IMG/VR virus record: IMGVR_UViG_3300012920_000042
Coordinates: 1 to 59,817 of that record
Direction: 5' to 3' (one strand)
Length of the DNA: 59,817 nt
Origin: a virus
Lineage: Duplodnaviria; Caudoviricetes
A program made the translations under genes and the position numbers. Shown here one piece after another: positions 3,780 to 59,245 of the stretch (positions within the stretch are counted from its first letter, which is position 1; each line of letters starts with the position of its first letter). The notes beneath the pieces were generated by a model. It searched no databases, was not told the DNA's origin, and saw nothing but the letters and a program-made list of their open reading frames with translations.

Positions 3780-3847
3780 ACCTACTACTCCTACATAATT
3801 GTGTGTATTAAAGTAGTATTTATCGTATGTTGCTAAAAAAACACGGT

Positions 3848-9038: not shown

Positions 9039-9695
9039 ATGAAGTTGTCGGACATCAAACTCGAGGCCAAGAAACCTAAGCAGGTTAAAGCCAAAAGTAA
9101 AAAGCCAAAGATAGTAAAACCAAATAAGGGTGGTAGTTCAAAACACCCTTATAGAGGTTCGCTTGTTGGTGAAGATTTAACTAGACGTCAAGCAATTAAA
9201 GGTTTAAGAGATGCTATAGGAGACTTCCTTGATTTTACAAAAGGTCAAGGCATGATATCTATTGCAGATGTACAACAAAACTTTGATCAGTTAGCATTAA
9301 AGTTTTATAATTTAACAGGCACAAACTTTACAGAAGGTAAAAAGCCTGAACTTCCAAAACAAAACAATCCAGTAGCAAAACACTCTCGCAATAAGAGTGG
9401 TGCTGGTGCTCACAAATCACCAAAAGATTATGACAGAAGAAAGGAAAAGCAGGATCTAAGAAAACAATTAGACGAAGCACCTTTAGTCATGCATCTAAAA
9501 GACGCAGACAATATTGCCATAGATAAAACAGATAAGTGGTTAAAATCACACTATGAAAAAGGCAATCCAGAGAAAAAAATGTCTGCGTACAAAAAACTAG
9601 GGAACCTAGTTGGTTATGAGATATCCCCGAGAGGCGAGGATACTGTTATTTTCAAAAGATTTTTCACACAGACAGAGAATAAAAAAAATAAATAA
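9039..9695 (+). CDS. Basic modular protein with capsid-targeting-like N-terminus
   Basis: MKLSDIKLE|A; internal LVGE, FTE, LDE boundaries; NNPVAKH..NKSGAGAHK module. Confidence 0.6.
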   Translation: MKLSDIKLEAKKPKQVKAKSKKPKIVKPNKGGSSKHPYRGSLVGEDLTRRQAIKGLRDAIGDFLDFTKGQGMISIADVQQNFDQLALKFYNLTGTNFTEGKKPELPKQNNPVAKHSRNKSGAGAHKSPKDYDRRKEKQDLRKQLDEAPLVMHLKDADNIAIDKTDKWLKSHYEKGNPEKKMSAYKKLGNLVGYEISPRGEDTVIFKRFFTQTENKKNK

Positions 9696-45000: not shown

Positions 45001-45163
45001 CAGGTTTGATAGAATCTGTTCGTACTGTGGCTTTGCGAAATTTTAATTTGGATTTTTGAAGGTCAGGTAATTTAAGTTGAGGCATTACATTGCGATCAAA
45101 ATGCTTATCGCCTACATTACTTGGCAATGTACTTGCTATTGCTTCAAATATTGATATTCTCAT
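42077..45163 (-). CDS. Polyprotein-like: ParB/Srx + Gly-rich linker + Cu/Zn SOD + DUF3008-like + acidic modules + ParB/Srx + basic Cys module
   Basis: [10 protein letters not shown]; [29 protein letters not shown]; [22 protein letters not shown]; ILDGFHR. Confidence 0.85.
43910..44371 (-). other. sodC: Cu/Zn superoxide dismutase domain embedded in the polyprotein
   Basis: Metal-ligand His/Asp residues, the disulfide Cys pair and the active-site Arg all recognisable. Confidence 0.92.
44480..44700. repeat. GC-rich low-complexity (CCGCCGCCT)n repeat encoding a poly-Gly/Ala/Ser linker
   Basis: Direct reading of 44560-44700; encodes GGGGGGGGGGGGGGGAGGG... Confidence 0.9.
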
Positions 45164-45303: not shown

Positions 45304-45394
45304 TCCTGTATACCGCAACCTCACCTTTATTACAAAGTGTGAACTCTCCTTCTGTTGGTTTTTGTGGTTCTCTGACCCTTATTTCCTCGCTCAT
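45263..45394 (-). CDS. Small hypothetical protein, 43 aa (not in ORF track)
   Basis: [27 protein letters not shown]; ATG overlaps the upstream TGA. Confidence 0.5.
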   Translation of the reverse strand: MSEEIRVREPQKPTEGEFTLCNKGEVAVYRNGEWQRPHKVSQV

Positions 45395-48300
45395 TTACTC
45401 AATTGTTTTTTAAGAGAGTCATGCAATTTTAATTTAGCATAACTTCTCACTATACTTCTTAAATCGTGTTCGTCACCATAACTTGCTCTAGCGGCTCTAA
45501 AATCTCTTATCATGCTAGGATCTGGTATAGCCACATAAGCATCCATTTGTCCTTTAATATCATTTGTAAGTAAAGGTTTGGCAAATATTTCTCTTAACTT
45601 TCTTATAGTATCGTTGTTAGGTACAGCACCTTCTCTGATGCTTTCTACTTTTTTACGCATACCTGAACCTCTTACTTTAGTTAAATCAACTAATCCTTTT
45701 TCTTTTTCAATGTAGTTTCTTATGTATCCACTACCTGCTTGATACATTCTTATTGATAAAAAGTCCTTGTTTGTGACTTTATTAAAAATTGTAATCTTAG
45801 GATGTTTAGCAGTTTCAATCATTTTTGCTTCTAAGTCAACTTTATCTTTGTCAAACATTCTATTTAACTTTTTAAAATCCAGCACATAGTATCCACCTGC
45901 TTTGAGATCTGTAAACTGTACTAGTTTTACTCTATCATCATTTAGTGTTGCAAAGAACTTGATAGCATTCAATAAAGTCAATAAAAATTCTTCTTCTTTT
46001 TCTTCACTTGTTAAATGAGAATTGAGTTGTCTTACTGCTTCTGTGTAAGCAATCTTATATCCTTGTTCTACGGTTTCTGCATTTAAAAAGTCTTGTTCTA
46101 TGTTTGAAATATCAACATCAAACCTTTGCCACATTTCTGCAAGTATGCCGTAACGTACACTTAATGGTTCTGTTTGCTTGCCTCCGCCTACTTGTCCCAT
46201 TTGTTTTGTGCTACCTACTTTAACACTCATGTCAAAATGTTGTAGTGTTTTTTCTGGACCACCATCTAAACTGTGTGTTAAGAATACATCTACTTTAGTA
46301 TCTGTTTCTCCACTAACACCATCAGCAATAACTTTTACAGTATCTACTTTACCATTTGCTTGGAAATAGTTTGTGTACTTTTCTAAATTATCATTTACAT
46401 AATCAACTACACCGCTTGTAATACTTTGCATTACACTCCATTTTTGAGGATCAATAAAGTCTTGATAAGTATCTGACTTTAAATTAAGTGTAAGTGTAAA
46501 GAAGTCAGCAATAGGATTATCTACTTCTTGAGCAGTAAGTGTTAGTTCATGCCAACCACCTTGATCCGGTGCATCTGTTGGTAACTGTTTAATAACATTC
46601 TCTATGTCTGCCGCTGTAACAGGCGCACTTGGACGTACTAATAAACGTGCAAATGTACCACAACCTAATATGCCTTCTGCTACTTCTCCTTTGTTGGAAA
46701 CTTTCACTGGTGCATCATCACCTGCAGGGCCTCCTGTCCTAGCACCAAACTCTGCTGTTTTTTCTAAAGTGCCATATGAAACTTGTTCGCCATCTGCTGT
46801 TGTAAGTTTTGCAGGAAGTTGTCCAGCATTCTCGGCATTGTCAAAAGCATCTGCCATACTTGGGTCTAACTTTATAGAGCCTTCGCCACCTGCAAGTGTA
46901 AAGTCTCCATCTGCTCTTAATTTATCTGCAAAATTTTGTCGCCTGTCAGGTGTTTTTAAATCTGCTCTACCTAATGCTTTCTCATGTAGTTGATTTATTT
47001 TAGTAACATCTATATTTTCTAATTTTGCTATTTGTTCTTGCAATGGCAGTTTGTCAAATCTATCAAACACACTTTCATTTTGACTTTGCAGTACCATTCT
47101 ACCTCTTGCTAATGCACCCTGGAAATCATTTGGTTCTTCGCCTGAGTTTTTATCAAAAATTAATTTTTGTATAACAGCATGTTTAAACTCTTCATCATTG
47201 TCTGGATTTTTTAAGAATGCTACAAATCTATTTACATCAGGTCTAAGCAAATAATTTTGCATACCTGTAATCATCATGTAATCAAATTTTTGGTATTTTC
47301 TTCGCATAGCATCATAATCGTCTTCTGATACATCATCGCCAGGCCTTTCTCCTCTTAAATCACTTACTGAAGGACCTGATGCGTTTCCATAAACATCGCT
47401 TACATCATCACCTGGATTGCCGTCAGCATCTTTTCTAAAGTAGTTTCCGCCTCCGCTAGTGTAGTTTGCATTGATATATTTTCTGGCATCTCTTACAGCC
47501 TGTAACCATCTTTGTAATCCTATTACAGGAACTTCATCTGGTCCTGATCTATACTTTGTTGAATCACTTTGGAATTGATCAACTACTTTTTTAAGTAAGT
47601 TTACACCTTGATTATTTACACCCGGTTCTATACCTATTGCAGGTGCTAATAGATCATATTTTGCTTGAGTATGTATTGTTTCAGATGATTCGCCATCTAG
47701 ATGATCAACTCTAGCGGCTTTGGCTATTGCATTACTTGTAGCATCATCTACAGGATCAAACTCATCACCATCTTTGTTTTGTGTTTCTTCATGAGGTATT
47801 AGAGGTGCATCATCTATACTGGAACCTTTTCTGGTAACTTCAATACCAGCCTTTTTCATCTGATTATATAAATTACTTGAATAAGAATCTGTCATTATAT
47901 ATTCATCAGTATCCATTCTATTCCAGGATATCTTATACATCAACATAAACTTTTTAATAATCTTGTTAGCAATAGGTTCACGCCATAACTGAGAAGTTTT
48001 TAATGGTGCATCATCTGGTAAATCATTTAGCATTGCTAAAGTGTCATAAGCCTGTCTGACTTGATCTACATGAGGACCAGGAATAATATATACACCTGCT
48101 TGATTTATTTTTCCTAAAAACTTGCTTCTATCTTGAACCTGAGCACTTTGTCTCTGAGCCTGAGTTATATCTGGATCTATACACCTATCATAAATGTCTT
48201 TCCTAATAACTAACACAGAATGTTCTGGAACGTTAATTGATATAGGAGGTCTGTTTTGTACTGCTTTTTTAAAGTTTGTTTCTCTTTTATCCACACGTTG

Positions 48301-51300
48301 CTTGTCTGCAATCTCATCTGCTTGGCTATCAAATCCCATTTTCTTAGCAATACTATCAAAACCAGTCATCCAATCTTTAATACCAGACCAACGATTTTCT
48401 ATAACATCTTCCAGTCCTTTATAATAATTAGAATCTTTTTCTTTACGCCCATAATAAGAGCCAAGCATTTCTCTTAAAGCATCGCTCATTCTTTCGTTGA
48501 GTCTCATTACAATATTTTCACCGAATGGACTTTCAAACTCTCCTTTTGCAATACTGTCAAGAATTTCGTTTAATTTTTCTAACGGATATTCATTGATTGC
48601 TAGATATCTAGAGTTGTCTTTGTAGCCTTCATGTTGTGTACCTTCAAAATCACTATCATAATCTTCCCAATACATATCGTGTAAAGGCTTGTTTGTTCTA
48701 ACAAACTGTTCTGTTAGTACACCTAACTGTTTAACAGCATCATAATATAGTTGAGGATTTATGTTTTTCATTTCTTCTAAGTATGATAAACGTTTTCTCA
48801 ACTTCATGGTATATGTGTTTAAATAGTTTTCCACGTAAGTATCATCGCTGTGAAAATTTCTATTATAGTTAGGCGACACAGGTTCTTTATAATCTTTAAA
48901 AGTTCCTAGAAACTCCATTAATTCTTTGTAATATTCTTCGTTGTATATATTACCTACTTGCACAGGAGGATTAGATACATCGTAACTTCCTTTAGTCATT
49001 CTAGTATAGAATAAATTGAACTCTCTGGTATCCATTGTATTATTAATAGACACCTTCATATTGTGTGGTTCATTATCTGAGAAGTCAATATCATCACCAT
49101 AATTAAATTTTAATAACAAGTCAGTTATTTTTTCATACTGTTCTCTGGTAAGATCGCTACCAACAGCATTCCACAATCCAGTTATAACTTTTTCTGCCAT
49201 TGGCGTTTTAATAAAACTAGGTGCTTTAATAATGTCTTTCTTGAAAAGTTCGTCAATACCTTTTTTAACTACATTAATTTTTTGATCTAATCTGTCGTTT
49301 TGAGTAGGTATGTTTACTCCGTCTATAGAACGTACTATACGTCTACTAAGTTCATCAGCATCTAAGTCAAAGTCTTTTAAACTGTTTCTAAGTGTGCCAA
49401 TAACTTTAACAGTAACGTTACCTCTGTTCATTTCGGTTGCAACGTCTACTGCTAGTATACCTAATGCCTGTAAATAGTATTTTTGTGCTTCTTGCAATTT
49501 TTCTGGAGCTCTTTTACTTGGAGGATTTCTTGGTGGTTCAATATAACCAGTTATTTCTTCTTCTGTAATACTTTCACCCATCCAACTTGGATCTCGGCCA
49601 GTTCCCTTTCTATAATCTTCTATATCCTGCTTCCATTCATCGTCTGCCTCTGGACGAGATAGTTCTTCGTATTCTGACTTAGAACTGTATGCATTTACAA
49701 TTTTGCCAATGCCATCAAAATAGTTATCTTTGCTTAATAATGTTTTGAATACATCTACAATAGGCTCTTTGATATTATCTATATCAAATCTATCTTTTGT
49801 TGCTTCTATGTCTGCTTTGCTGATATTTCCCGCGGTATTAACAATTCTGTAGAGCATAGCATTGTAGTCTGCTTTATACTTGTCCTCGTCATAACCTGCC
49901 TCCATGATAGTTGCATATCTTATAACTGCTTTAACAATTTTACCCATGTCTCTATGGTAGTCTTCGCCGCCACCTATTCTAAACTCTATGAGTTGATTTT
50001 TGGAATCTCTATCTACTTCGCCTTTAAAATTAATACTGCTAAATTTGTCTCTGCTCAAAGACTTTGAAAGTACAGCCTCTATTTCTTTTCTTCCTTCTTC
50101 GCCTTTGCCTATTTCTCTAGTAAGTTGTTTTGCGGCTTTTCGTAATCTTTCGCTTTGTTGCTTTGTGTAACTATTTCTTTCTCTACCGAAAGTACTGAGT
50201 AGATAAGTATCTCCTAATAGTGCCGCCATTTTTAATTTGTTTGGACCTGCGGATTCTGAATCGGAAATGGCTCTTGTTGTATCTTCTGCACCATTCCAAC
50301 TCATTGTAACATGCAAACCTGTAGAATTATTAGTTTCCATATCTGCACCTTCAAAAAACTTGAACATAGAACGCATTTCATCTAACATTTCTCTAGGAGT
50401 ATTAAATACTGGCGATATAATTTCTGCTCCAGTACCATAACTGTCAATACTGCTATCTGATTCTACGGCATAACCGCTAGTAGTACTTGTATACCCATAA
50501 TCACCTGTTTCTGGATATTCATTGAACTTACTGTTATCTTCTATCCAGCCACCATACAATGTTGAAGCAACTTCTTCTAAGCCGCCACCTTGTAGTTCAG
50601 AATAGTCAATGCCATAATCATCTAAAAATGAAGTCATTGTGTAGTATGCATCACTAATCCAGTCGTCCATGCTGTAATCACCATATGCTTCATCAAATGC
50701 TTCTTGGAAAACATCACCGTCAGCATCTAAATCCTCACGCAACCAATCAATGTATTCCGGTTCGTAATTTTCGTCAATGTACTCTCTTATCCAATTAATT
50801 TCGTCCCAACCATCCTCTTCTCTGTTTTGAAACTCTGCAGGATCGTTTTCTTTCATCTCTTCTTTGTAATCTTCAACTGCTTCATAAGTAGGTGCATCAT
50901 CGCTTTCATCCATATAACGTGTATAAGTATCGTCGTCATCTCTGGCATTTTCAATGGCAGTATCCATAGCATCTTCATAATAGTCAGGTGCTTTATTTTC
51001 TCTTATCCATTCATCAAAGCCTTCATCGATGTAACCTGCGTCACCGCTACCTATGTATAATGTACCTTCAACTTCACTCCAACTCATTTCATCTACATCT
51101 TCATTACTTCCGCTGATGTATTCCCATGATGTTTCTGCTTCGAACCCGCACTTGATAGGCAAGTCTAATGCTTTGTTTACAATTTCTTTACTGTTAAAGT
51201 TTATTTCTGCTAGATACTCGCCTTCTCTTAATCGGCTTCTTGAGAGTCTTTTAATTTTTTTAGCAATGGAGTTTTTCTTTGTGGTTTGTTGTTTTGTAAC

Positions 51301-51780
51301 TTTTTTAAGTATGTCATGACCTATGTCCTCATCTATCATAACTTCTACATTAGGATCATATAATTCGTATTCGCCTTTAACATTTTGTACAACAATCTTA
51401 TCTGGATTAGGTGACATACCTACTTTACTAATTACTGTACCTACTGTATTACCGTCCTTGTCTTTGAATACAGCACCATCGTCTAGGCCTTTTGCTGGTA
51501 CGCCAACCATTTTAGGTGCCGCACTTTTACCTGTTGTATTAGGACTTGCTTTTTGTCTTGCATTAGGACTTGCTTTTTGCATGGTATTTGGTGATGATGA
51601 TTGTCCCATAGCACCTTTTATATCACCTTGTGCTAGATCTGATCCTGCTTTTACTCTATCCTTAACAAATTTTGCGGCGGCTTTTGCTTTTTGACCAAAA
51701 GTACTATACGCAGGAGCACCTGGTGTAGACCCATATTCTTTTAAAAAATGTTCTAAAGTTTTAATATCATTAAACTTCAT
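45391..51780 (-). CDS. Giant modular protein with a putative amidoligase (COOH-NH2 ligase) domain and a C-terminal PD-(D/E)XK-like module
   Basis: CGFEAE, VESDSSI, GAEIISPV, TNNSTGLHVTMS, KFSSIN, IEFRIGGG; NKGEVAEG..TKVDV..MSVK. Confidence 0.75.
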   Translation of the reverse strand: MKFNDIKTLEHFLKEYGSTPGAPAYSTFGQKAKAAAKFVKDRVKAGSDLAQGDIKGAMGQSSSPNTMQKASPNARQKASPNTTGKSAAPKMVGVPAKGLDDGAVFKDKDGNTVGTVISKVGMSPNPDKIVVQNVKGEYELYDPNVEVMIDEDIGHDILKKVTKQQTTKKNSIAKKIKRLSRSRLREGEYLAEINFNSKEIVNKALDLPIKCGFEAETSWEYISGSNEDVDEMSWSEVEGTLYIGSGDAGYIDEGFDEWIRENKAPDYYEDAMDTAIENARDDDDTYTRYMDESDDAPTYEAVEDYKEEMKENDPAEFQNREEDGWDEINWIREYIDENYEPEYIDWLREDLDADGDVFQEAFDEAYGDYSMDDWISDAYYTMTSFLDDYGIDYSELQGGGLEEVASTLYGGWIEDNSKFNEYPETGDYGYTSTTSGYAVESDSSIDSYGTGAEIISPVFNTPREMLDEMRSMFKFFEGADMETNNSTGLHVTMSWNGAEDTTRAISDSESAGPNKLKMAALLGDTYLLSTFGRERNSYTKQQSERLRKAAKQLTREIGKGEEGRKEIEAVLSKSLSRDKFSSINFKGEVDRDSKNQLIEFRIGGGEDYHRDMGKIVKAVIRYATIMEAGYDEDKYKADYNAMLYRIVNTAGNISKADIEATKDRFDIDNIKEPIVDVFKTLLSKDNYFDGIGKIVNAYSSKSEYEELSRPEADDEWKQDIEDYRKGTGRDPSWMGESITEEEITGYIEPPRNPPSKRAPEKLQEAQKYYLQALGILAVDVATEMNRGNVTVKVIGTLRNSLKDFDLDADELSRRIVRSIDGVNIPTQNDRLDQKINVVKKGIDELFKKDIIKAPSFIKTPMAEKVITGLWNAVGSDLTREQYEKITDLLLKFNYGDDIDFSDNEPHNMKVSINNTMDTREFNLFYTRMTKGSYDVSNPPVQVGNIYNEEYYKELMEFLGTFKDYKEPVSPNYNRNFHSDDTYVENYLNTYTMKLRKRLSYLEEMKNINPQLYYDAVKQLGVLTEQFVRTNKPLHDMYWEDYDSDFEGTQHEGYKDNSRYLAINEYPLEKLNEILDSIAKGEFESPFGENIVMRLNERMSDALREMLGSYYGRKEKDSNYYKGLEDVIENRWSGIKDWMTGFDSIAKKMGFDSQADEIADKQRVDKRETNFKKAVQNRPPISINVPEHSVLVIRKDIYDRCIDPDITQAQRQSAQVQDRSKFLGKINQAGVYIIPGPHVDQVRQAYDTLAMLNDLPDDAPLKTSQLWREPIANKIIKKFMLMYKISWNRMDTDEYIMTDSYSSNLYNQMKKAGIEVTRKGSSIDDAPLIPHEETQNKDGDEFDPVDDATSNAIAKAARVDHLDGESSETIHTQAKYDLLAPAIGIEPGVNNQGVNLLKKVVDQFQSDSTKYRSGPDEVPVIGLQRWLQAVRDARKYINANYTSGGGNYFRKDADGNPGDDVSDVYGNASGPSVSDLRGERPGDDVSEDDYDAMRRKYQKFDYMMITGMQNYLLRPDVNRFVAFLKNPDNDEEFKHAVIQKLIFDKNSGEEPNDFQGALARGRMVLQSQNESVFDRFDKLPLQEQIAKLENIDVTKINQLHEKALGRADLKTPDRRQNFADKLRADGDFTLAGGEGSIKLDPSMADAFDNAENAGQLPAKLTTADGEQVSYGTLEKTAEFGARTGGPAGDDAPVKVSNKGEVAEGILGCGTFARLLVRPSAPVTAADIENVIKQLPTDAPDQGGWHELTLTAQEVDNPIADFFTLTLNLKSDTYQDFIDPQKWSVMQSITSGVVDYVNDNLEKYTNYFQANGKVDTVKVIADGVSGETDTKVDVFLTHSLDGGPEKTLQHFDMSVKVGSTKQMGQVGGGKQTEPLSVRYGILAEMWQRFDVDISNIEQDFLNAETVEQGYKIAYTEAVRQLNSHLTSEEKEEEFLLTLLNAIKFFATLNDDRVKLVQFTDLKAGGYYVLDFKKLNRMFDKDKVDLEAKMIETAKHPKITIFNKVTNKDFLSIRMYQAGSGYIRNYIEKEKGLVDLTKVRGSGMRKKVESIREGAVPNNDTIRKLREIFAKPLLTNDIKGQMDAYVAIPDPSMIRDFRAARASYGDEHDLRSIVRSYAKLKLHDSLKKQLSK

Positions 51781-52129: not shown

Positions 52130-52576
52130 TTACCACTTCTTACATGACCAGTATCTTGCTTTAGTCTTTGGACCTGGATTATCGCAATTATGTCTTGCTC
52201 TAAAACTCTTTCTTGCTTTAGGATTGTTTTTGCGAATTTTCATAGCCTTACCTTTTACACTTGAACCGCCGTGTCCAAAGTTTACTTTTTTAACGTTTCC
52301 TGTTTTAGGATCTTTCACATAAACTTTAAACTTCTTAACATCGCCTTGCATAGGTTTGTTAAGTTTAACTTTACGTCCGCGGTATTCTGCTTCTTCTAGG
52401 TTATCTTCAATCCATCCGTAGTCTTCAAAGAAAGCATTGTCGTCATCATAATCATATTCTTCGAGACCTTCTTTTTTGACACAGTTTGGTACACGTTTTC
52501 CGAACATGGTTTTCATGCCCTTCTTCTCGTAACCTTTCCAACAACGTGTGCCTTCTTCAATTTCTCTTATATTCAT
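52130..52576 (-). CDS. Basic modular protein (DUF6321-like C-terminus)
   Basis: Likely start 52576 MNIREIEE|G; CWKGY..VPNCV module; RKSFRARHNC..ARYWSC. Confidence 0.7.
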   Translation of the reverse strand: MNIREIEEGTRCWKGYEKKGMKTMFGKRVPNCVKKEGLEEYDYDDDNAFFEDYGWIEDNLEEAEYRGRKVKLNKPMQGDVKKFKVYVKDPKTGNVKKVNFGHGGSSVKGKAMKIRKNNPKARKSFRARHNCDNPGPKTKARYWSCKKW

Positions 52577-52824
52577 AATAATATACTTCCTAATAGTGTT
52601 CCTACTGTGGCTAAAAGTGTAGTTACAGTAATACCAACAATAGCAACTATCCAACCTTCTAGTTTATCAAGTCTTGATTTAGTATCATCTTTGAATTCTC
52701 TTAGTTCAGCAGTAATGCTTTCTATACGCAACATATCTGCAATAATATGTGCTTCAACACCACCCTCTTGAATATACTGCTCTGGTTGTGGTACTTCTTT
52801 AGTTTCTACCTTTTTTCTAGCCAT
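52573..52824 (-). CDS. Coiled-coil protein with a C-terminal TM helix
   Basis: RLDKLEGWIVAIVGITVTTLL. Confidence 0.7.
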   Translation of the reverse strand: MARKKVETKEVPQPEQYIQEGGVEAHIIADMLRIESITAELREFKDDTKSRLDKLEGWIVAIVGITVTTLLATVGTLLGSILL

Positions 52825-53316: not shown

Positions 53317-54378
53317 CTAGAATGGCACGTCTTTAGAACGTGTAGTAATAGGTGTGTAAACTTCTTCTTTTGGTAATGATTTATTTTCTAATGCACGTTG
53401 TACAAATGCTTTTCTCAGTATTTGGAAATCTTTCATTATTTCAGATTTGGTTCTTGTTATTTCAAAGTTACCATACCAGACACCCAGTACTTCTATTAGC
53501 ACTTGTATTATATCATTGTGTATGTGTAGTCCTTTGTCTCTGTAATCTGTGAAGTATTCTTGTATTAATTCATACAAAGGAAAGTAATTTTCACGCATTG
53601 TTTCTTCTACTGCAACACGAATGCTGGATTTTGCAACAAAGGATAGTGCTAAAGGAGGGTGATCCTCTGGGAAAGATTGGCTTGCAAATCCAAAAGGACT
53701 GAGTATAAAGAGTACATCTTTACAAATATATTTGTGTATTAATTCTAATACTTCTTTGTGTGACTGCAATGTTTCTTCATGAGACATTCTGCGTATAATA
53801 TGTCTTTCATGATCTAAGTGTGCTAATGGCGGTGCCGCATGTAGGTCCTGCCCTGTTACTTTGTCATGATAAATGTCTGTGGTGCCACTAAATAATACCA
53901 TTTTATTAAAGTCAAGCATTTTTAGTTTCAAAAACTCTTTGTCTCTTTTGCTGATTTTAAATTGCTTAGGACTGTAATCTTCCCAGATGCTTTCTTGATA
54001 CATATCACCATCTTCAAAAAGCCAACGTAAGTTCATAGCAAGTGTTTTCATATTAAATACACCTTGTCCATATCTAAAAACTTTGTTGGTTGTCCACATT
54101 TTCTTTTCAAATATACTAGCAAAGTCTGTTACTATACAACTGCCTGCCCATAGTACAGTATCACCTTGTTCAAAAAAGTCAGTGTTAAATGAATGGAACC
54201 ATTCATAATTGAAGAATTCTTTGGATTTTTCAAAGCCAGGTGTAGATGTAGTAATTAATTTACCTGGTCTTGCATTAGCAACTTCCATAGGAATTTTGAA
54301 GTTGCCAAACACAGATTCTGTGGAACTCATTTCCAGGATGTGTTGGTTTATGATTAATGGGTCGTCTAGTATTGCCAT
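53317..54378 (-). CDS. GSCFA-family (SGNH-like) protein
   Basis: WAGSCIV, ILSP, AKSSIRVA, YFPLYE, LH; leaderless late start. Confidence 0.75.
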   Translation of the reverse strand: MAILDDPLIINQHILEMSSTESVFGNFKIPMEVANARPGKLITTSTPGFEKSKEFFNYEWFHSFNTDFFEQGDTVLWAGSCIVTDFASIFEKKMWTTNKVFRYGQGVFNMKTLAMNLRWLFEDGDMYQESIWEDYSPKQFKISKRDKEFLKLKMLDFNKMVLFSGTTDIYHDKVTGQDLHAAPPLAHLDHERHIIRRMSHEETLQSHKEVLELIHKYICKDVLFILSPFGFASQSFPEDHPPLALSFVAKSSIRVAVEETMRENYFPLYELIQEYFTDYRDKGLHIHNDIIQVLIEVLGVWYGNFEITRTKSEIMKDFQILRKAFVQRALENKSLPKEEVYTPITTRSKDVPF

Positions 54379-54390
54379 ACTAGTATTTAT

Positions 54391-54960
54391 TTAGGCGTCG
54401 AACTTACTGGCTACGTCTTTGGCGTCACTACCTACTTTATCTAAATATGATTGAACTTCGCCTTTGCCTAATCCAACCACCTCTTCACCTTTATTAACAA
54501 TCTTTCTAAGTGCTGTTTTGATTAGATCCATTCCTGGTATTTCAGGATCGTCGGGGGACTGTCCAGCCGTCTTTGAGTATTTTCTTAGTGGCTTTGCTCT
54601 TTTTTCAGCATCTGCCGCCGCCTGAGCCGCTGATTTCCAATCACCTGCTTTACCACCAGTTTTTCTAATATGTCTATCAACAGCATCTTGGTCTCTGGTT
54701 TTTAGTGCCGCTAATTCCGTGTTAGCATAACTGATTGCTTGTTGCATGGTCTGTATGTGAGGCATCATTAAAGCAACTTGTACAAGATTCACAAACTCTG
54801 GATTGTCTTTGTATGTTTGACGCATTTGGGTAAGTTCGTTTTGATCCCAACCTTTGTCTTGTGCTTGTTGTCTAAAATCTTTAGCCCTAGCAGGTTTTAC
54901 GTTGCTAGACGGTTCAACATCGTCAAGATCTGGTGCTTCTGTTATTTCATAAATCTTCAT
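54391..54960 (-). CDS. Hypothetical head-associated protein
   Basis: MKIYEITE|A start. Confidence 0.65.
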   Translation of the reverse strand: MKIYEITEAPDLDDVEPSSNVKPARAKDFRQQAQDKGWDQNELTQMRQTYKDNPEFVNLVQVALMMPHIQTMQQAISYANTELAALKTRDQDAVDRHIRKTGGKAGDWKSAAQAAADAEKRAKPLRKYSKTAGQSPDDPEIPGMDLIKTALRKIVNKGEEVVGLGKGEVQSYLDKVGSDAKDVASKFDA

Positions 54961-55781
54961 TTCTGTCTCTTTCTACCACTTGCCCAGTAGCCTGCTATTG
55001 CTCCTATGCCTGTACCTATCTTATCTTGTGTAGAAGGTTTTGCTTTTCTTAACTTATCTATAGCATATTTACCTGCTATGGCACCTGCAACTGTACCCGC
55101 GGCTCTAGTGGCAAATGATGGTCTTTGTGCATCAGCCGCCGCTTTGTTAGCCTTTCTCTCAAGATCTCTGTAACCTCTTTTCTTGAGAAATGGTTCTAGT
55201 GCAGGAACTAATTCGCTACCTCTACCTGCTCCACCACCTATTCTTTTAATTTCAAATACCAGTTGAGCATATATGGCATTTCTTTGTGCAAATTTTAAGT
55301 TCTTATATGTACTTATCAATCTACGCCATCTTTTATAACGAGAATCTTTTATTTTTAACTGATTTTCTAGTCTATAAAAATACATATTTGCATATTCTCT
55401 GCCTGCTCTTGATTGTGCAACCATACGCAAATATTTAATGTACATGCCTTGATCAAACTGTAAACCTTCCATGAATTTTTTACTTTCTGAATGTTTTGTA
55501 AAAGTCATGTTTTGATTGTCTGGATGTAAAAGTGCGTATGCTAATAGATATAAATCTGAGGCCGCTGTTCTAAACAATGCAAAGTTACCATATGCAACTG
55601 TTATTTTTGCATAATCTTTTGCTCTCTTTACTGTTTTATCTTCGAGATAAAGTAAGTGTAGTGCTAACGTATTCAAGAACAATAAGTCAGCAATTTGTCT
55701 ACCTGTAAAGGCACCAAAACTTCTAGAGTATCTAAATAGTCTTGCTTCTGCTATTTCTTGATTTATTAATTTTAAATCCAT
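54957..55781 (-). CDS. Helical protein with a C-terminal glycine zipper
   Basis: INQEIAE|A; AAGTVAGAIAG and IGTGIGAIAG. Confidence 0.65.
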   Translation of the reverse strand: MDLKLINQEIAEARLFRYSRSFGAFTGRQIADLLFLNTLALHLLYLEDKTVKRAKDYAKITVAYGNFALFRTAASDLYLLAYALLHPDNQNMTFTKHSESKKFMEGLQFDQGMYIKYLRMVAQSRAGREYANMYFYRLENQLKIKDSRYKRWRRLISTYKNLKFAQRNAIYAQLVFEIKRIGGGAGRGSELVPALEPFLKKRGYRDLERKANKAAADAQRPSFATRAAGTVAGAIAGKYAIDKLRKAKPSTQDKIGTGIGAIAGYWASGRKRQK

Positions 55782-56905
55782 TATCTTGTTACCGCCCTGT
55801 TTGCCGCACTAAATGTTGCCCTTGGCACTAATTTAATATCACCGTCTGGGTGTGCTAATACATATCCTTCGCCACCACTATTACCATTTATATTCTGTTG
55901 TATATCACCACCTTGATTTTCAAACTGTGATATAACTTTATCTTTAACCTGCATAATAGCAGAAACTGTTTTCCACATTGCCGAATAGGCTTTACTGTGT
56001 TTTTGTATATAGTCTGCTATACGTTGTTTCTTTACAGCACTGACATTTGATGTTTGTAACCAATCTATAAAGTCAACTCCTAATTCATCTAAGCCTGTAT
56101 CTACTTTAGAATTAATATATCTATACAGTATCTGAGGAAAGTCCTTCATTTTTAATATAGATAATTCTGTTGTACTAAGCAACTCATCTATAAGACCTGC
56201 ATTTTGTTTTACCATTGCTTCTAATTTATTTAATGCAGGACTAATCTTTTGTGCAGGTTTCTCGACACTGATAGGTGGTACAACAAGTACATTATCACCT
56301 GTAAATATATCATAATTTTGTAAAGGTGATTCATTGCCTTCTTCATCTACCATCCTATGAATAACTATACCAGCATTACTTTGTCTAATTTTTTGTCCTA
56401 ATTCTGATTCTACGTCAACAGCATATTCCACAATGTTAGGTTTAAAAACATAGTTATTATTTTGTACAGGAGGTGTTTGACTGTAAAGTAAGTCTCCTTT
56501 AAAATAACCTTTAAAATTTTCTGGAACTATTAATTCAAATTGATTGAATAAATCCGCCATTGTGTTAGCAAATTCTATTTGTGCTGGATCTTCTCTTCTG
56601 GAACCTCCACTACGTGATAAAAACATGTTTCTAACTTCTTCAGCAGATGTTGTTTTACCATCATATCCTTTTGCTGTCCAACCACTTTTATCAGTGAACA
56701 CAAATTGTCCTTGTGGATTCCTACCAAATATAACAGCAGGAGAGCCGTCCCATTTTATTGTGACGTCTTTGTGCCCATCTTTTTCTAAACTTTTTAAACT
56801 GTTTACAACACGCATGGCACCTTTTGAACCTTCCCAAAAGATAATATCTTCAGCATGTTGAATCCTTGCGGCTTCCATTAGCAATTTGATTTCTCTAAAC
56901 CTCAT
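55781..56905 (-). CDS. DUF6267-like, ATP-dependent ligase/covalent nucleotidyltransferase fold
   Basis: TIKWDG (motif I KxDG), KGDLLY, EGYV (motif IV), IKLV (motif V). Confidence 0.7.
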   Translation of the reverse strand: MRFREIKLLMEAARIQHAEDIIFWEGSKGAMRVVNSLKSLEKDGHKDVTIKWDGSPAVIFGRNPQGQFVFTDKSGWTAKGYDGKTTSAEEVRNMFLSRSGGSRREDPAQIEFANTMADLFNQFELIVPENFKGYFKGDLLYSQTPPVQNNNYVFKPNIVEYAVDVESELGQKIRQSNAGIVIHRMVDEEGNESPLQNYDIFTGDNVLVVPPISVEKPAQKISPALNKLEAMVKQNAGLIDELLSTTELSILKMKDFPQILYRYINSKVDTGLDELGVDFIDWLQTSNVSAVKKQRIADYIQKHSKAYSAMWKTVSAIMQVKDKVISQFENQGGDIQQNINGNSGGEGYVLAHPDGDIKLVPRATFSAANRAVTR

Positions 56906-57777
56906 GCTAGTTTCCTCATGTACATTAATATATCTTCAGACATTTCTAGTTCGGAAGGAATGCCCATGTCTTGTATTTGTTTATTATCCCTGATACTGTC
57001 AAGTATTTTATTTACTAGTTCAGCAGGATAGTTTTTTTCTATTGCATTTTTTAAACTTTCAAAACTGTTTAAATCTGCTTTGTTGTCTAATCCTAATACT
57101 TTTACAATTTCTTCTGGTGTAAGCCAAGGACCATCAATGATAACATTATTGTTTTGTTTTGTATACCCGTCGCCATTCTTCTTAGGCACTGGTGTTCTTT
57201 TAACTCTTACTAAACCTTTTGTAGGAGAAAACAAAAATTGTTCTGACTCTAAACTTCTACCATCCTCTGTTTGCTCTTCTGAATCTTTTCTATTATATAA
57301 TGCGGCAACTGTGGCTAACATTATGTTTCTGTATACACCTTTGTATTGACTTTCTCCTTCGCCCGGCGAATGGTAATAAGTTTTCATCCAACCTGGATTA
57401 CCTGGCATAAAGTCTAATTGTACAAAACCTGTTCTTGCTCTATCTGATTTTTTATTAGGATCATAGTTTGCTATTTTTACTTTTGTCATTATAACACTAC
57501 TCTTAGCAATGTCTATGATATCAGGATTAGTTTTTAATTTGTCTAGTAGTTCAGGCATTGCATCAGGCTCTACATCTATAGCAACATCTATGTCTCCTGA
57601 AAATTCCTTTTTACCCACTGAACCTAACACGTTGTTTTTCAATTCCATTCCCAAAGATTTTTCTAAGTAATCTAAAGTAGGTTCAATTTCGTCAATGTGA
57701 ATAGCACCCACGCCAGACATACTTCCACTTTCGTTAAGTGTTTCAAGCCGTTCTTTGGTAACTTCAAACAAACGCAT
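56902..57777 (-). CDS. Pol-beta superfamily nucleotidyltransferase
   Basis: LGSVGKK..SGDIDVA..VQLDFM. Confidence 0.75.
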   Translation of the reverse strand: MRLFEVTKERLETLNESGSMSGVGAIHIDEIEPTLDYLEKSLGMELKNNVLGSVGKKEFSGDIDVAIDVEPDAMPELLDKLKTNPDIIDIAKSSVIMTKVKIANYDPNKKSDRARTGFVQLDFMPGNPGWMKTYYHSPGEGESQYKGVYRNIMLATVAALYNRKDSEEQTEDGRSLESEQFLFSPTKGLVRVKRTPVPKKNGDGYTKQNNNVIIDGPWLTPEEIVKVLGLDNKADLNSFESLKNAIEKNYPAELVNKILDSIRDNKQIQDMGIPSELEMSEDILMYMRKLA

Positions 57778-58292
57778 TATTTTTTCTTCTTGGATTTATT
57801 GCCCCAATTCTTAGCACCCTTCTTTCTGCATTGTACCAATGCACCACTGGCGTAAGCACTAGGCCATATTTTATACCTGCTTTTTACTTTGTGATAGCAG
57901 GCATCTCTTTTTGGTTTTTTCTTTTTCTTTGCTTCATCTAAGCCTTCAATAGGCCCACCGCATTGTGGACATTGATCAAAAGGAATCTCTAAATATAAAC
58001 TTTCATTGCTTACATTTTTTGCTTTACCTTTACGATTTTTGTTGCCGTCTTTTCTACGTTTTCTATTAACTGCTTTGGCTATTTCTTTTTTGCCACCTTT
58101 TGCTCTTAACTTTGCGGCTTTTGATTTACTTAAACACTTAGGTTTGCCTTCACCTTTTTTGCTGTCGCCACACTTACCAATTCTTTCACCTTTAGAATTG
58201 TATCTATCCCAACCGCCGCCTCCGGCTCCACCTTTTTTGCCTTTGCCAAACCATGCTCTTAGGTCTTCTGATAGGATATCATTTATTAACAT
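57777..58292 (-). CDS. Basic modular protein (DUF5872-like)
   Basis: MLINDILSE|DLRAWF..KPKCL; CPQCGG; DACYHKVKSRYKIWPSAYASG. Confidence 0.65.
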   Translation of the reverse strand: MLINDILSEDLRAWFGKGKKGGAGGGGWDRYNSKGERIGKCGDSKKGEGKPKCLSKSKAAKLRAKGGKKEIAKAVNRKRRKDGNKNRKGKAKNVSNESLYLEIPFDQCPQCGGPIEGLDEAKKKKKPKRDACYHKVKSRYKIWPSAYASGALVQCRKKGAKNWGNKSKKKK

Positions 58293-59245
58293 TAGGCGGC
58301 TCCTGCCCTCGCATCGTTCCTTGCTTTGATTGCCGATGTTAATTGTGCTCTTTGATCTGCTGATAAGTTAAAAATTCTATCAACTATATCATTTAGTTGA
58401 GGGTCATCTACTTGTCCTGGTCCATCATCTATTGGCTCGCCTGTTTCATCGTCTCTGCCATTGTTATCTCTGTCTCTAGGATTAGTGCCGTCTCCTGCGC
58501 CGGCGTCCCGAGCTGATTCACCTGCATCTGCAAAAATTTCTTTTGCAAGTACTTTTGGCTCTGTTGCTGTTTGAGGTAGCACTAAGTTTTGTAATGCAGA
58601 AGGCTGTCTCATCTGAGCCTGTAGAGCGGCTTTTACAACTTCATTTCTTCCCTTAGCAGTTAATATCGAAGCACCTCCAACACCTTTTCCGCCGGAACCA
58701 AATTGTGTGCCGCCTTGATTGCCTGGTCTAAATTGTCCTACTAGAGCATCGGGTATTGGTTTATTAAAGTTTGGATTTTGTACTGGTTGTCCTGGTACAA
58801 ATTTCTGGAGGTCCACATCACCATTTTCACCTGGAGTTGGCCAACCATAAATAGCGGCCTGTTGTTTTCTTTTTGCCATATCTTTATTAACAACTATTTC
58901 TTTTCTATCATCAACATCACCAGGGTTCCATCTTTTTAAATCGATGTCTACTTCTACTTTTGCTGTTTGAAATGCTTTTGTGAGTATCTGCGGACTAATA
59001 CCTGCATCTAATAAAAATTGTGCAAGGTCCTCTGCTTTGATTTGATTTTCTTGGACACCTGCTGATTTCATTGATGCTGTAAATCTGCTCTGCAACTCAG
59101 TCTGATAAGTGTTTACAAAGAGTTTCATTTGGGCCTCTTCAAAGCCCATAGAGGCTAATGCCGCATTTCCTAAATTAAGAAAATTATTTTTAAGACTTTG
59201 TTTCCAATCTTCGTTGGTTTGTTTAGTTACTTCTGAGATTTTCAT
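58292..59245 (-). CDS. Hypothetical head-associated protein
   Basis: MKISEVTKQTNE|D start. Confidence 0.65.
   Translation of the reverse strand: MKISEVTKQTNEDWKQSLKNNFLNLGNAALASMGFEEAQMKLFVNTYQTELQSRFTASMKSAGVQENQIKAEDLAQFLLDAGISPQILTKAFQTAKVEVDIDLKRWNPGDVDDRKEIVVNKDMAKRKQQAAIYGWPTPGENGDVDLQKFVPGQPVQNPNFNKPIPDALVGQFRPGNQGGTQFGSGGKGVGGASILTAKGRNEVVKAALQAQMRQPSALQNLVLPQTATEPKVLAKEIFADAGESARDAGAGDGTNPRDRDNNGRDDETGEPIDDGPGQVDDPQLNDIVDRIFNLSADQRAQLTSAIKARNDARAGAA

Follow-up and report, generated by a model that had tools for sequence, protein, structure and literature searches.

ASFV encodes a base-excision-repair set composed of a Pol X (O174L), a DNA ligase (NP419L), and an AP endonuclease (E296R), in which a minimal Pol X is combined with a dedicated ligase inside the particle. 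The packaging of these repair enzymes in the virion has been suggested to allow repair of the viral DNA before replication starts (PMC12172490). In Phaeocystis globosa virus, PgVPolX naturally combines a Pol X core and a ligase in one protein and was reported to fill and seal single-nucleotide gaps (PMC5537341). Bacterial LigD/NHEJ follows the same logic, in that breaks are processed and sealed by a small polymerase coupled or fused to a ligase, and the polymerase domain of LigD was reported to favour ribonucleotides (PMC7072297, PMC6547435). For phage T4, the targeting sequence was described as the first 10 residues, with gp21 cutting after L/I-x-E (PMC9026906). IPII and IPIII of T4 start with MKTYQEFIAE/A, and IPI starts with MKTFKEF...ITE/A (a slash before the last residue marks the cut here and below).

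In this study, a stretch of phage DNA of 59,817 nucleotides (hereafter the window) was analysed, which corresponds to about 19% of a genome according to CheckV. The phage is large and marine. As the initial annotation had described, two overlapping genes with the motifs GS..DID..D and KWDG..EGYV..K were present. ORF A (56902-57777, minus strand) encodes 291 aa and is a putative minimal, family-X-polymerase-like nucleotidyltransferase, and ORF B (55781-56905, minus strand) encodes 374 aa of a DUF6267, ligase-superfamily-like enzyme. These were exactly the two minus-strand ORFs in the ORF list at these coordinates, and they overlapped by 4 nt (ATGA). The flanking genes on both sides were also chained by 1- or 4-nt overlaps. 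Two upstream genes with the same N-terminal tag (171 aa and 317 aa; 57777-59245, minus strand) were joined to ORF A by overlapping stop and start codons, and the 171-aa protein matched phrog_727. Downstream of ORF B lay a third gene of the module (54957-55781, minus strand), whose 274-aa product is helical with a Gly-rich C-terminus; it had no match in Pfam, PHROGs, or NCBIfam, and an Atlas search gave no usable lead. This was followed by a tagged gene for 189 aa (54391-54960, minus strand) with the N-terminus MKIYEITE/A. Among the other genes of the window are those for UvdE (E 6e-37) and an exonuclease.

Our preferred reading, to which we give slightly less than an even chance, is that the pair forms a module which fills gaps and seals nicks in DNA and which is packaged and ejected with the genome. 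The genes, their motifs, the likeness of the folds, the coupling of the genes, and the statistics of the tag are observations, and we infer packaging, cleavage, DNA as the substrate, and catalysis. The likeness to the ASFV set lies in the kind of enzymes and in AsfvLIG fold matches to ORF B, not in sequence homology. ASFV differs in being a eukaryotic virus with a canonical ATP-dependent DNA ligase; furthermore, no AP endonuclease was found in the phage module, and loading would here use a T4-type propeptide. LigD is likewise compared by logic, not by homology: its polymerase is of the archaeo-eukaryotic primase type, unlike the Pol X-like ORF A, and no Ku homologue was identified in the phage.

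The ORF A motifs, LGSVGKKEFSGDIDVA and VQLDF, include the palm of family X (G-S ... D-x-D ... D carboxylates). The palm motif G52-S53 ... D62-I-D64 is encoded at 57586-57624 and the third carboxylate, D122 of VQLDF, at 57412-57414, both on the minus strand. G52, D62, D64, Q120, D122, and R150 were invariant in all 66 diverse homologues compared, and 600 cluster representatives were found for ORF A at E<=1e-3. The best profile-to-PDB sequence match was the Pol lambda palm CGSYRRGKATCGDVDVA, which aligned to the palm motif (E 0.09). When the AF2 model was compared with the PDB using Foldseek, 147 matches were obtained at E<=1e-3 (best 1.6e-5), and the best 50 of these 147 were all Pol lambda, beta, or mu. 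The alignments covered ~220-270 columns, but the TM-scores were only about 0.3. The initial annotation had taken ORF A for a generic Pol-beta enzyme, naming the CCA-adding enzymes and cyclic-nucleotide synthases; since the best 50 PDB matches were exclusively family X DNA polymerases, we rejected both the generic reading and these two kinds. Two features of ORF A count against the preferred reading, namely the moderate quality of the model (pLDDT 74.7, pTM 0.54), with its TM-scores of about 0.3 to Pol X, and the lack of any match above a Pfam threshold, DNA_pol_B_palm and DNA_pol_B_thumb included. A PHROG family was not matched either. Weak contact with PF14792 (DNA_pol_B_palm) was seen in 4/66 homologues (best E 0.023), and with AbiEii in one. 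Neither the sequence nor the model contained an 8-kDa dRP-lyase domain or a helix-hairpin-helix domain; only ~35 residues of mature ORF A precede the G-S motif, which leaves no room for them. In this respect, ORF A also differs from PgVPolX, in that a dRP-lyase domain is not evident. Judging from the model, ORF A is probably a stripped-down family-X-type polymerase, in which a palm with three Asp residues, presumably catalytic, is followed by a thumb-like region.

ORF B was a full-length match to Pfam DUF6267 (PF19782; E 1.4e-35, 123.9 bits against a cut-off of 27), residues 15-370 corresponding to model positions 4-372 of 376. DUF6267 was matched by tblastn in 71 phage records with best identities of about 23-34%, and a full-text literature search for 'DUF6267' found no mention. 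Members from T4-like cyanophages, pelagiphage HTVC008M, and Methylophilales phages belong to the same Pfam family; unlike ORF B, these cultured-phage proteins carry no tag, have no ORF A partner, and often adjoin or are fused with a cytidyltransferase-like domain. Since the cyanophage proteins have neither tag nor ORF A partner, the ligase can work without both, which counts against the preferred reading.

The KWDG, FKGDLLY, EGYVL, and DIKLVPR motifs of ORF B contain, in the right order, what we take to be motifs I, III (acidic, D138), IV, and V of covalent nucleotidyltransferases. Motif I, K51-W-D-G54, with the candidate nucleotidyl-lysine, is encoded at 56744-56755, motif IV, E346-G-Y-V349, at 55859-55870, and the motif V lysine, K358, at 55832-55834, all on the minus strand. 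K51, W52, D53, G54, D138, E346, G347, Y348, V349, K358, and R362 were invariant in 25/25 homologues. By inspection, K-x-D-G was also present in P-HM1, PA5oct gp228, Phosso 446, Atu 878, P0252, and P0253; furthermore, hhalign aligned motifs IV and V with PA5oct gp228, which has EGYVIR (E 8.7e-4). A helical insert of ~110 aa precedes motif IV.

The initial annotation had named Foldseek as a check. This gave the Pol X result described above for ORF A, whereas the ORF B model (pLDDT 84) had no PDB match at E<=1e-3, which counts against the preferred reading. The best PDB match was T4 Rnl1 (2c5u_A; E 9e-3, TM 0.18), which is also 374 aa long. RNA or DNA ligases made up 23 of the 40 PDB fold matches listed (hand count), and archaeal Rnl3, fungal Trl1, and AsfvLIG chains were among those listed. 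In BFVD, ORF B matched PA5oct gp228 (E 3.5e-5), an 'ICP-46/RNA ligase' (E 7.9e-4), and an Atu_ph07 'RNA ligase' (E 4.5e-3), many viral 'RNA ligase' entries lying between E 8e-4 and 5e-2. The RNA-ligase likeness that had been noted initially is thus consistent with both the motifs and the nearest annotated folds. That these folds are RNA ligases, not DNA ligases, counts against a DNA substrate; a LigD-like preference for ribonucleotides would reconcile such a fold with DNA repair. ORF B differs from T4 Rnl1, in which the helical block follows motif V. No match to T4 Rnl1 or Rnl2 was found with hhalign, and a Pfam search at E<=0.1 returned DUF6267 as the sole match and no ligase family, including PF09511; both results count against the preferred reading. 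ORF B as a canonical DNA ligase (PF01068 or PF01653) was rejected on the basis of the same search and of the secondary structure of the model, in which no OB-like block was evident. From the motifs and the weak fold matches, most of them to RNA ligases, we provisionally place ORF B in the ligase superfamily.

The two genes had been regarded as coupled in the initial annotation, and their co-occurrence bore this out. A same-strand ORF A-like gene was located upstream of ORF B in 72 of the 80 related viral loci. ORF B was at the contig edge in three of the eight loci without a linked ORF A. Counting against the coupling, L048, L050, L054, L070, and L071 carry a tagged ORF B with no ORF A-like gene within ~5.8 kb upstream. 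In-frame ORF A/ORF B fusions were found at four loci (L024, L027, L028, and L082), and three proteins (P0254, P0258, and P0263) are fusions of ORF A and DUF6267, which parallel PgVPolX. The ligase domain of PgVPolX is of the NAD+-dependent LigA type, whereas the phage ligase part is DUF6267 or PF09414-like; PgVPolX is not known to be packaged. In P0253, ORF A is fused with a weak PF09414 match, and P0252 is a triple fusion of ORF A, a ligase-like part with K-A-D-G, and a HIGH domain. In 54/80 viral loci, jackhmmer detected a homologue of the third gene that follows ORF B in the same orientation, and Phosso and Atu_ph07 keep the trio of ligase-like, ORF A-like, and g274-like genes. ORF A and ORF B are a coupled pair, as their conserved adjacency and natural fusions show.

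A third nucleotidyltransferase, of the HIGH type, had been pointed out at 13686. This gene (13686-16124, plus strand) encodes an untagged 812-aa protein with an N-terminal NMN-adenylyltransferase-like domain, and matched PHROG 395, 'cytidyltransferase' (E 1e-6). Its NCBIfam NMNAT match was weak (E 2e-4, far below the cut-off), and it was similar to PHM1_162 of P-HM1 (E 4e-5). The HIGH-type gene is tied to the pair only via fusions in other phages, namely P0252 and the DUF6267 fusions with a cytidyltransferase-like domain seen in BFVD.

Both ORFs start with a tag and a following Glu site, as had been seen initially. The tag, ^M-x-[ILFVMY]-x-[DE]-[ILFV], was present on 13 of the 72 called genes of the window (binomial P = 7e-13), compared with 0/48 shadow ORFs, 4/424 internal Met positions, and a composition-based expectation of 1%. 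Because its synonymous codon positions vary, the signal is at the protein level. The predicted propeptide of ORF A comprises residues 1-16 (57730-57777, minus strand; MRLFEV, a linker, and L-N-E/S), and that of ORF B residues 1-11 (56873-56905, minus strand; MRFREI, a linker, and L-M-E/A). Both junctions were kept in relatives despite the variable length of the linker. Among the 66 ORF A homologues, 30 were untagged, and their starts, M-G/S-G-N, coincided with the cut predicted after Glu; the junction Glu was present in 26 of the 36 N-extended ones. The ORF B tag was found in 59/74 related loci, and nearly all 74 had hydrophobic-x-E ahead of the conserved ARIQHAED block, including those with long in-frame upstream extensions. 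The tag carriers in the window form a series of large or uncharacterised proteins, whereas the recognised metabolic and replication enzymes (ribonucleotide reductase subunits, the exonuclease, UvdE, and the HIGH enzyme) are all untagged. One tagged protein has a superoxide dismutase domain. The likeness to IPI, IPII, and IPIII of T4 consists of about six conserved N-terminal residues, a hydrophobic-x-E-hydrophobic core, an optional linker, and a hydrophobic-x-E cut followed by A, G, or S. The T4 proteins differ in having the hydrophobic residue at position 4 instead of position 3; moreover, the proteins to be carried here are enzymes that act on DNA or RNA strands, and cleavage and packaging are predictions from sequence. 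The tag and Glu site thus behave like a removable capsid-targeting propeptide of the T4 type.

A T4 gp21-type Peptidase_S77 protease (E 2e-26) is encoded by G001, a related contig of 262 kb, and the N-termini near this protease may be read as portal-like. The PF03420 model was run on G001 and four smaller related fragments, and Peptidase_S77 was absent from the latter; no protease gene was recognised in the window, a small part of its genome. Two properties of G001 count against the packaging of the module: it shares only 18 of the 72 window genes, and its fused protein has only a five-residue pre-sequence (MILKE/S). As for the virion itself, the ORF A homologue gp231 of PA5oct is annotated as 'structural protein, ESI-MS/MS'. 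It is in virions according to this annotation, yet untagged, which counts against tag-based packaging, and the ligase-like gp228 of the same phage has a tag-like N-terminus but no structural annotation, which counts against a packaged module. For the phage of the window, we infer that ORF A and ORF B are present in the virion.

In the preferred reading, ORF A, ORF B, and the downstream helical protein would act as one conserved module. Both enzymes would be made as precursors with an M-R-[FL]-x-E-[IV] targeting peptide and a hydrophobic-x-Glu cleavage site; the tag would bring them into a T4-type prohead, where a gp21-type protease may cut after Glu16 of ORF A and Glu11 of ORF B. The mature enzymes would then be ejected together with the DNA and could repair the incoming genome, at nicks, gaps, or ends, ahead of all phage gene expression. 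In this way, the phage may bring its own tools for mending breaks into the host. For this, the module would fill short gaps or add a few nucleotides, and the resulting nick would be sealed by ORF B as a nucleotidyl-lysine ligase.

The same enzymes might instead process intermediates of replication or repair within the infected cell, with DUF6267 as a general nick-sealing ligase, ORF A as its gap-filling partner, no delivery by the virion, and the peptide serving as a propeptide or sorting signal for another purpose. We consider this unlikely, albeit the foremost alternative. An annotated replicative helicase or primase-helicase is found a few genes upstream of the module, or of its ligase, in P-HM1, Phosso, and Atu_ph07, in keeping with such a role. 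P-HM1 has no match to PF01068, PF01653, PF09414, or PF09511, so that DUF6267 is its only ligase-like gene; G001 likewise lacks matches to all four, and PF01068 was absent from G001-G005. The untagged state of the cyanophage DUF6267 proteins points in the same direction, as does the label 'virion structural protein' in P-HM1, which is on a nearby gene and not on the DUF6267 gene. However, a tag that avoids the recognised metabolic and replication enzymes of the window, sits on large or unknown proteins, and matches the T4 internal-protein targeting pattern speaks against this reading, as does the annotated detection of PA5oct gp231 in virions. Furthermore, canonical DNA ligases are already present in PA5oct, Phosso, and Atu_ph07, so the linked ligase is extra there.

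The initial annotation had proposed a pre-made RNA/tRNA end-repair kit. In such a kit, ORF B would reseal tRNAs cut by anticodon nucleases, and ORF A would rebuild 3' ends in the way of CCA-adding enzymes or terminal transferases. RNA ligases (T4 Rnl1, archaeal Rnl3, and fungal Trl1) are the nearest annotated relatives of ORF B by fold, no OB domain was obvious, weak matches to PF09414 (RNA_ligase; E 6e-4 and 2e-3) occur in relatives that adjoin or are fused with ORF A-like genes, and the window has four tRNA genes, all of which agree with this proposal. Nevertheless, the best 50 of the 147 ORF A fold matches included no RNA nucleotidyltransferase, whether CCA-adding, poly(A), or of another kind, and RNA-ligase-type enzymes can also serve in DNA-damage repair, as described for DraRnl (PMC5397189). 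In the seven genes at 53317-59245, Pfam and PHROGs showed no recognisable kinase, phosphatase, or 2H end-healing domain; the pair as an RNA repair set of the Rnl and Pnkp kind, which in T4 includes a Pnkp-like partner, is unsupported on this ground. The jumbo phages Phosso and Atu_ph07, which have the pair, keep separate, bona fide Rnl1- and Rnl2-type ligase genes elsewhere in the genome. Given the Pol X fold matches of ORF A, the missing end-healing enzyme, and these separate ligases, gap filling and sealing of DNA fits better than either tRNA repair, which we regard as improbable, or the protein nucleotidylation that had been offered beside it. DNA as the substrate is also favoured by the helicase or primase-helicase genes near the module, by UvdE and the exonuclease in the window, and by the precedents of PgVPolX and the packaged ASFV set. 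Finally, a function other than strand repair (nucleotidylation of proteins or DNA ends, nucleotide-signal synthesis, a capping-type reaction, or a structural role of degenerate enzymes) appears very improbable, as catalytic residues invariant across wide divergence argue against degenerate enzymes and no capping enzyme, cGAS/CD-NTase, or AbiEii-type structure was among the leading fold matches listed, even though simple gap filling and sealing leaves the NMNAT-like HIGH-type link unexplained and T4 Rnl1 sets a precedent for a second role, acting non-catalytically in tail-fibre attachment as well (BFVD entry D9I6G0). Taken together, the pairing, the ligase likeness, and the tag with its Glu site of the initial interpretation are supported, and the HIGH-type gene that it pointed out is linked to the pair through fusions, while its generic Pol-beta reading and its tRNA repair or nucleotidylation are not supported.

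The preferred reading of a packaged DNA gap-filling and sealing module can be taken further, although we find the wider form doubtful. Marine jumbo T4-type phages may load a complete strand-break repair kit by means of T4-style peptides. In this kit, a minimal Pol X and a DUF6267 ligase would be joined by a helical accessory protein, alongside a tagged protein with a superoxide dismutase domain; injected with the genome, it would mend UV- or oxidation-damaged DNA before the genes are read. DUF6267 would also supply the ligase that has long been missing from T4-like cyanophages, and its frequent fusion with an NMN-adenylyltransferase-like domain may hint at a self-regenerated nucleotide cofactor.

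Two coupled genes, one for a Pol-beta-type nucleotidyltransferase and the other for an RNA-ligase-like enzyme, had been proposed in the initial annotation, and the ORF listing gave both at exactly the same positions on the minus strand: ORF A at 56902-57777 (291 aa) and ORF B at 55781-56905 (374 aa), with an overlap of 4 nt. They belong to a minus-strand chain joined by 1- or 4-nt overlaps (58292-59245, 57777-58292, ORF A, ORF B, 54957-55781, and 54391-54960). The window, which spans the entire record, is AT-rich (GC near 0.36) and was estimated by CheckV to represent ~19% of a genome. Its phage content includes a ribonucleotide reductase and a match to a 'virion structural protein' family, and an exonuclease and four tRNA genes are also encoded. 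At 6443-7501 (-) lies a gene for UvdE (Pfam E 6e-37), a repair endonuclease that nicks UV-damaged DNA; the resulting nicks would have to be filled and sealed. The adjacent genes 7875-8480 and 8493-9035 (+) have similar N-termini (…KKYNLAGLNANVELGKQG… and …KNYGLTGVAKEVELGKSG…) and are probably tandem paralogues; the former has no PHROG match.

The coupling was examined in 80 viral loci encoding a relative of ORF B, with a search profile derived from a diverse set of ORF A homologues. This search detected an ORF A-like gene upstream of ORF B, in the same orientation, in 72 loci. Of the remaining eight, three have ORF B at the very end of the contig (L032, L040, and L056), and the other five (L048, L050, L054, L070, and L071), two of which were inspected, have no ORF A-like gene within ~5.8 kb upstream. 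These five form a sub-lineage in which ORF B is 410 aa long and tagged, with the module's third gene after it and, before it, a Cys-rich ORF and one of 464 aa. ORF A and ORF B are continuous in a single reading frame in four loci (L024, L027, L028, and L082) and, among database representatives, P0254, P0258, and P0263 are ORF A-DUF6267 fusions. P0253 joins ORF A to a domain weakly matching Pfam RNA_ligase (E 6e-4), and P0252 combines ORF A, a ligase-like part with K-A-D-G...E-G-V-V, and a HIGH-type domain in one protein. The pair is also present in the cultured jumbo phages Phosso (446/447), Atu_ph07 (878/877), and PA5oct (gp228 and gp231); in the first two, the ligase-like gene weakly matches PF09414 (E 2e-3). 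The proposed linkage was thus borne out in relatives, and the coupling is strongly supported. Complex prediction with the mature ORF A and ORF B proteins gave 'no answer' (score 0.00), which speaks neither for nor against binding.

The gene downstream of ORF B (54957-55781, (-), 274 aa) is part of the same module: a homologue follows ORF B in 54 of the 80 loci and adjoins the pair in Phosso and Atu_ph07. This protein gave nothing in the ESM Atlas and no match in Pfam or PHROG, and NCBIfam had no matches for it, ORF A, or ORF B.

ORF A had no family match in Pfam or PHROG, Pfam scans of its near-identical homologues gave nothing useful, and direct sequence searches with ORF A and ORF B found no match in the PDB. 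Profile searches of the PDB added only a chance coiled-coil match (profile A1) and weak chance matches (profile A2). The family is nevertheless large, comprising 1228 proteins at E<=1e-4 in a word-indexed search and 600 cluster representatives at E<=1e-3 in an exhaustive one. Across 66 diverse members with 25-48% identity to ORF A, G52, D62, D64, Q120, D122, and R150 are invariant; Pol-beta-fold transferases are marked by this signature, G-S...D-x-D...D. With 25 sequences as input, AlphaFold produced a model (pLDDT 74.7, pTM 0.54) that gave 147 PDB matches at E<=1e-3, and the best 50 of these were all family X DNA polymerases (lambda, beta, or mu). The best E was 1.6e-5, the probability was 1.0, and alignments covered ~220-270 columns, with TM-scores of only ~0.3. 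Echoes in sequence are weak but point in the same direction: the top PDB match of the 66-sequence profile was the Pol lambda palm (E 0.09), and Pfam DNA_pol_B_palm was touched by four of the 66 members (best E 0.023). Since the G-S motif begins at residue 52, there is no space for the 8-kDa and helix-hairpin-helix domains. Judging from these echoes, the fold matches, and the missing domains, ORF A is best labeled a minimal Pol-X-like enzyme, short of proven family membership.

Pfam assigns ORF B to DUF6267 as a full-length member (E 1.4e-35); the family search gave 1867 database proteins at E<=1e-5. A tblastn search hit 71 phage records, mostly T4-like cyanophages together with HTVC008M, Melnitz phages, and DLP_6; the best identities were ~23-34%, and all matches are annotated as hypothetical. 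A full-text literature search found no paper mentioning 'DUF6267'. K51-W-D-G54, D138, E346-G-Y-V349, K358, and R362 are invariant in all 25 homologues compared. In the structural model (pLDDT 84), beta strands surround these motifs and a helical block (224-330) precedes E-G-Y-V. The model had no PDB match at E<=1e-3; among the matches listed, T4 Rnl1 came first (9e-3), followed by archaeal Rnl3, fungal Trl1, and DNA ligases IV, III, ASFV, and PR1, and by our count 23 of the 40 were polynucleotide ligases. Against BFVD, DUF6267 relatives led, then PA5oct gp228 (E 3.5e-5) and an Atu_ph07 'RNA ligase' (E 4.5e-3), with some twelve RNA ligases of viruses (8e-4 to 5e-2) and a single DNA ligase also among the matches listed. 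By hhalign, motifs IV and V of ORF B aligned with PA5oct gp228 (E 8.7e-4). The ORF B alignment did not match T4 Rnl1 or Rnl2, and alignments with Atu_ph07 878, P0253, and P0252 were non-significant, although that with P0253 still placed K-x-D-G in register. The ESM Atlas offered only sub-threshold leads, one cluster carrying PF09414 on 48% of its members (score 0.75). The motifs and the enrichment of ligases among weak fold matches suggest that ORF B belongs with the ligase superfamily, and the label 'RNA-ligase-like' is fair at the fold level. A capping-enzyme reading was rejected, as no capping enzyme appeared among the PDB and BFVD fold matches listed.

DUF6267 is often fused to, or adjoins, a cytidyltransferase-like HIGH domain. 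The BFVD matches listed include a 591-aa S-PM2 protein containing both, and the gene next to DUF6267 in P-HM1 is annotated as cytidyltransferase-like. The HIGH-type gene noted at 13686 in the window is indeed present (13686-16124, (+)) and resembles that P-HM1 gene (E 4e-5); its matches to NMN-adenylyltransferase are weak (E 2e-4) and far below the cut-off. Given this association, the HIGH domain could conceivably regenerate the cofactor of the ligase. Neither P-HM1 nor G001, a 262-kb contig related to the window, has any of PF01068, PF01653, PF09414, and PF09511; with these four ligase families tested, no ligase-like gene other than DUF6267 was seen in either. A review lists the gp30 ligase with several other replication genes that at least one marine cyanophage lacks (PMC2993671). 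With DUF6267 as the sole such gene in P-HM1, it can be tested directly which enzyme seals DNA in T4-like cyanophages.

The initial annotation had proposed RNA/tRNA end repair or protein nucleotidylation; we place tRNA repair behind DNA strand repair, without certainty. The closest annotated folds of ORF B, among the matches listed, are RNA ligases, and an OB domain was not seen in ORF B, both of which would suit an RNA substrate. However, the listed fold matches of ORF A are Pol X only, and Pfam and PHROG scans of the module neighbors revealed no end-healing domain; both points argue for DNA. Furthermore, other parts of the Phosso and Atu_ph07 genomes encode distinct ligases of the Rnl1 and Rnl2 types as well as NAD-dependent DNA ligases, and PA5oct has its own ATP-dependent DNA ligase, so the partner ligase is additional and dedicated, which again favors DNA. 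The DNA reading is also supported by gene order in Phosso, Atu_ph07, and P-HM1, where a gene annotated as a replicative helicase or primase-helicase lies a few genes upstream of the ligase-like one, and by UvdE and the exonuclease in the window. Pol X plus ligase is, moreover, a known viral repair pairing: accessible text describes a natural fusion of the two in PgV (PMC5537341) and the packaging of both in ASFV (PMC12172490). RNA-type ligases can serve DNA-break repair when a polymerase adds ribonucleotides, as described in the available parts of reports on LigD (PMC7072297, PMC6547435) and DraRnl (PMC5397189); by analogy, a ribonucleotide-adding polymerase with an RNA-type ligase could bridge the DNA and RNA readings. 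On motifs and models, the pair is best read as a putative Pol-X-like gap filler with a DUF6267 ligase.

The tag, M-x-[ILFVMY]-x-[DE]-[ILFV] at the protein N-terminus, occurred on 13 of the 72 called genes of the window, on none of 48 shadow ORFs, and at four of 424 internal Met positions, with 1% expected from composition (binomial P = 7e-13). It was absent from all recognized metabolic enzymes of the window when N-termini were compared with annotations; near-matches by eye are 42077-45163 (MRISIFE) and 54957-55781 (MDLKLI). An RNA-level or translation-initiation signal was rejected, because synonymous positions of the tag codons vary freely and few internal Met positions carry the motif. The N-termini of T4 IPII and IPIII (MKTYQEFIAE/A, slash at the cut) and IPI (MKTFKEF...ITE/A) share with the tag a core of hydrophobic-x-E-hydrophobic, located one position earlier in the window. 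According to the available part of PMC9026906, head targeting of IPIII needs only the first 10 residues, gp21 cleaves after L/I-x-E, and T4-like phages may generally load diverse proteins via a targeting sequence.

In the window, the tag is followed by a variable-length linker and then a hydrophobic-x-E junction. Thirty of the 66 ORF A members start with M-G/S-G-N exactly at the predicted cut; the other 36 have an N-terminal extension, ending in Glu at that cut in 26. The conserved ARIQHAED block of ORF B was found in 74 of the 80 loci, of which 59 are tagged, 11 have long in-frame upstream sequence, and four lack a strict tag; the junction precedes the block in nearly all 74, fusions included. 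P-HM1 DUF6267 is untagged and begins directly at the block. These comparisons provide strong evidence for a removable propeptide. Thus the tag statistics and the conserved junction uphold the tag and E site on both genes; the tag is real and, on sequence grounds, behaves as a propeptide.

A second conserved propeptide element, H-P-x-[RH]-G-x-L-V-G-[EA], follows the tag in a 218-aa protein of the window (9039-9695, (+); …KHPYRGSLVGE) and recurs as …HPARGKLVGE… in long linkers of some ORF B homologues (L037-L046, L021), where the last x-E junction comes after it. The element may serve for docking or as an additional cleavage site. At 45391-51780 (-), a tagged protein of 2129 aa (MKFNDIK) matches PHROG 3560 in its C-terminal third only and no Pfam family; a 453-aa protein of G001 is homologous to one part of it. 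The tag-like 1028-aa protein at 42077-45163 (-) has N-terminal matches to a ParB-like nuclease PHROG and a complete Cu/Zn superoxide dismutase domain (Pfam E 8e-43). Sod_Cu is also fused to some DUF6267 homologues (P0028, P0040, P0041, and others, ~561 aa). Small tagged proteins at 52130-52654 and 57777-58292 (both (-)) carry short Cys-/Lys-rich motifs (C-W-x-G-Y-x-K-x-G…V-P-N-C-V and …W-P-S-A-Y-A-S-G…), which recur in P-HM1 PHM1_163 (L004, 5763-7070); proteins with these motifs match phrog_727 and phrog_7595.

We infer that ORF A and ORF B are capsid cargo. G001 has 18 of the 72 window genes in common, with local synteny around the module, and encodes a Peptidase_S77 (T4 gp21) homologue (E 2e-26) whose adjoining ORFs have N-termini that look portal-like by eye. 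The tag occurs on 16 of its 312 genes (P = 3e-7), and its fused ORF A-B protein has only MILKE/S in front. The window encodes an untagged 519-aa subtilase (26470-28029, (+); Peptidase_S8 E 4e-23; PHROG 3677 'protease'), which differs from the T4-type prohead protease. The ORF A homologue of PA5oct, gp231 (tblastn E 1e-9), carries the annotation 'structural protein, ESI-MS/MS'. The paper on this phage reports 93 virion-associated proteins (PMC7318152), and its main text mentions neither gp231 nor a ligase. Since gp231 is untagged, whereas the tag-bearing gp228 has no structural annotation, the correspondence between tag and virion is imperfect. The 81-aa virion protein gp230 of PA5oct (3657-3902 of locus L001) has a tag-like start (MRLDEIQ), and its end coincides exactly with the start of gp231; it may be a detached propeptide-bearing piece. 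Virion delivery of the pair is plausible but unproven.

The observation from which the analysis started is confirmed. Pol X-ligase repair and T4 capsid targeting are of known kinds; what is new is how they are combined, along with both protein families and the occurrence in a phage. DUF6267 and the ORF A family are both abundant in ocean metagenomes, and confirmation would give a function to two large families (1867 proteins and 600 representatives, respectively) and establish DUF6267 as a ligase of T4-like cyanophages. The short tag can be used directly to predict which proteins of uncultured jumbo phages are capsid cargo. Literature on related themes yielded no phage case of head-carried DNA-repair enzymes, and this would be, to our knowledge, the first phage known to carry such enzymes in its head. 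If confirmed, a phage with DNA-repair enzymes in the head would parallel the virion-packaged repair enzymes of ASFV and would have implications for phage survival of sunlight damage in surface waters.
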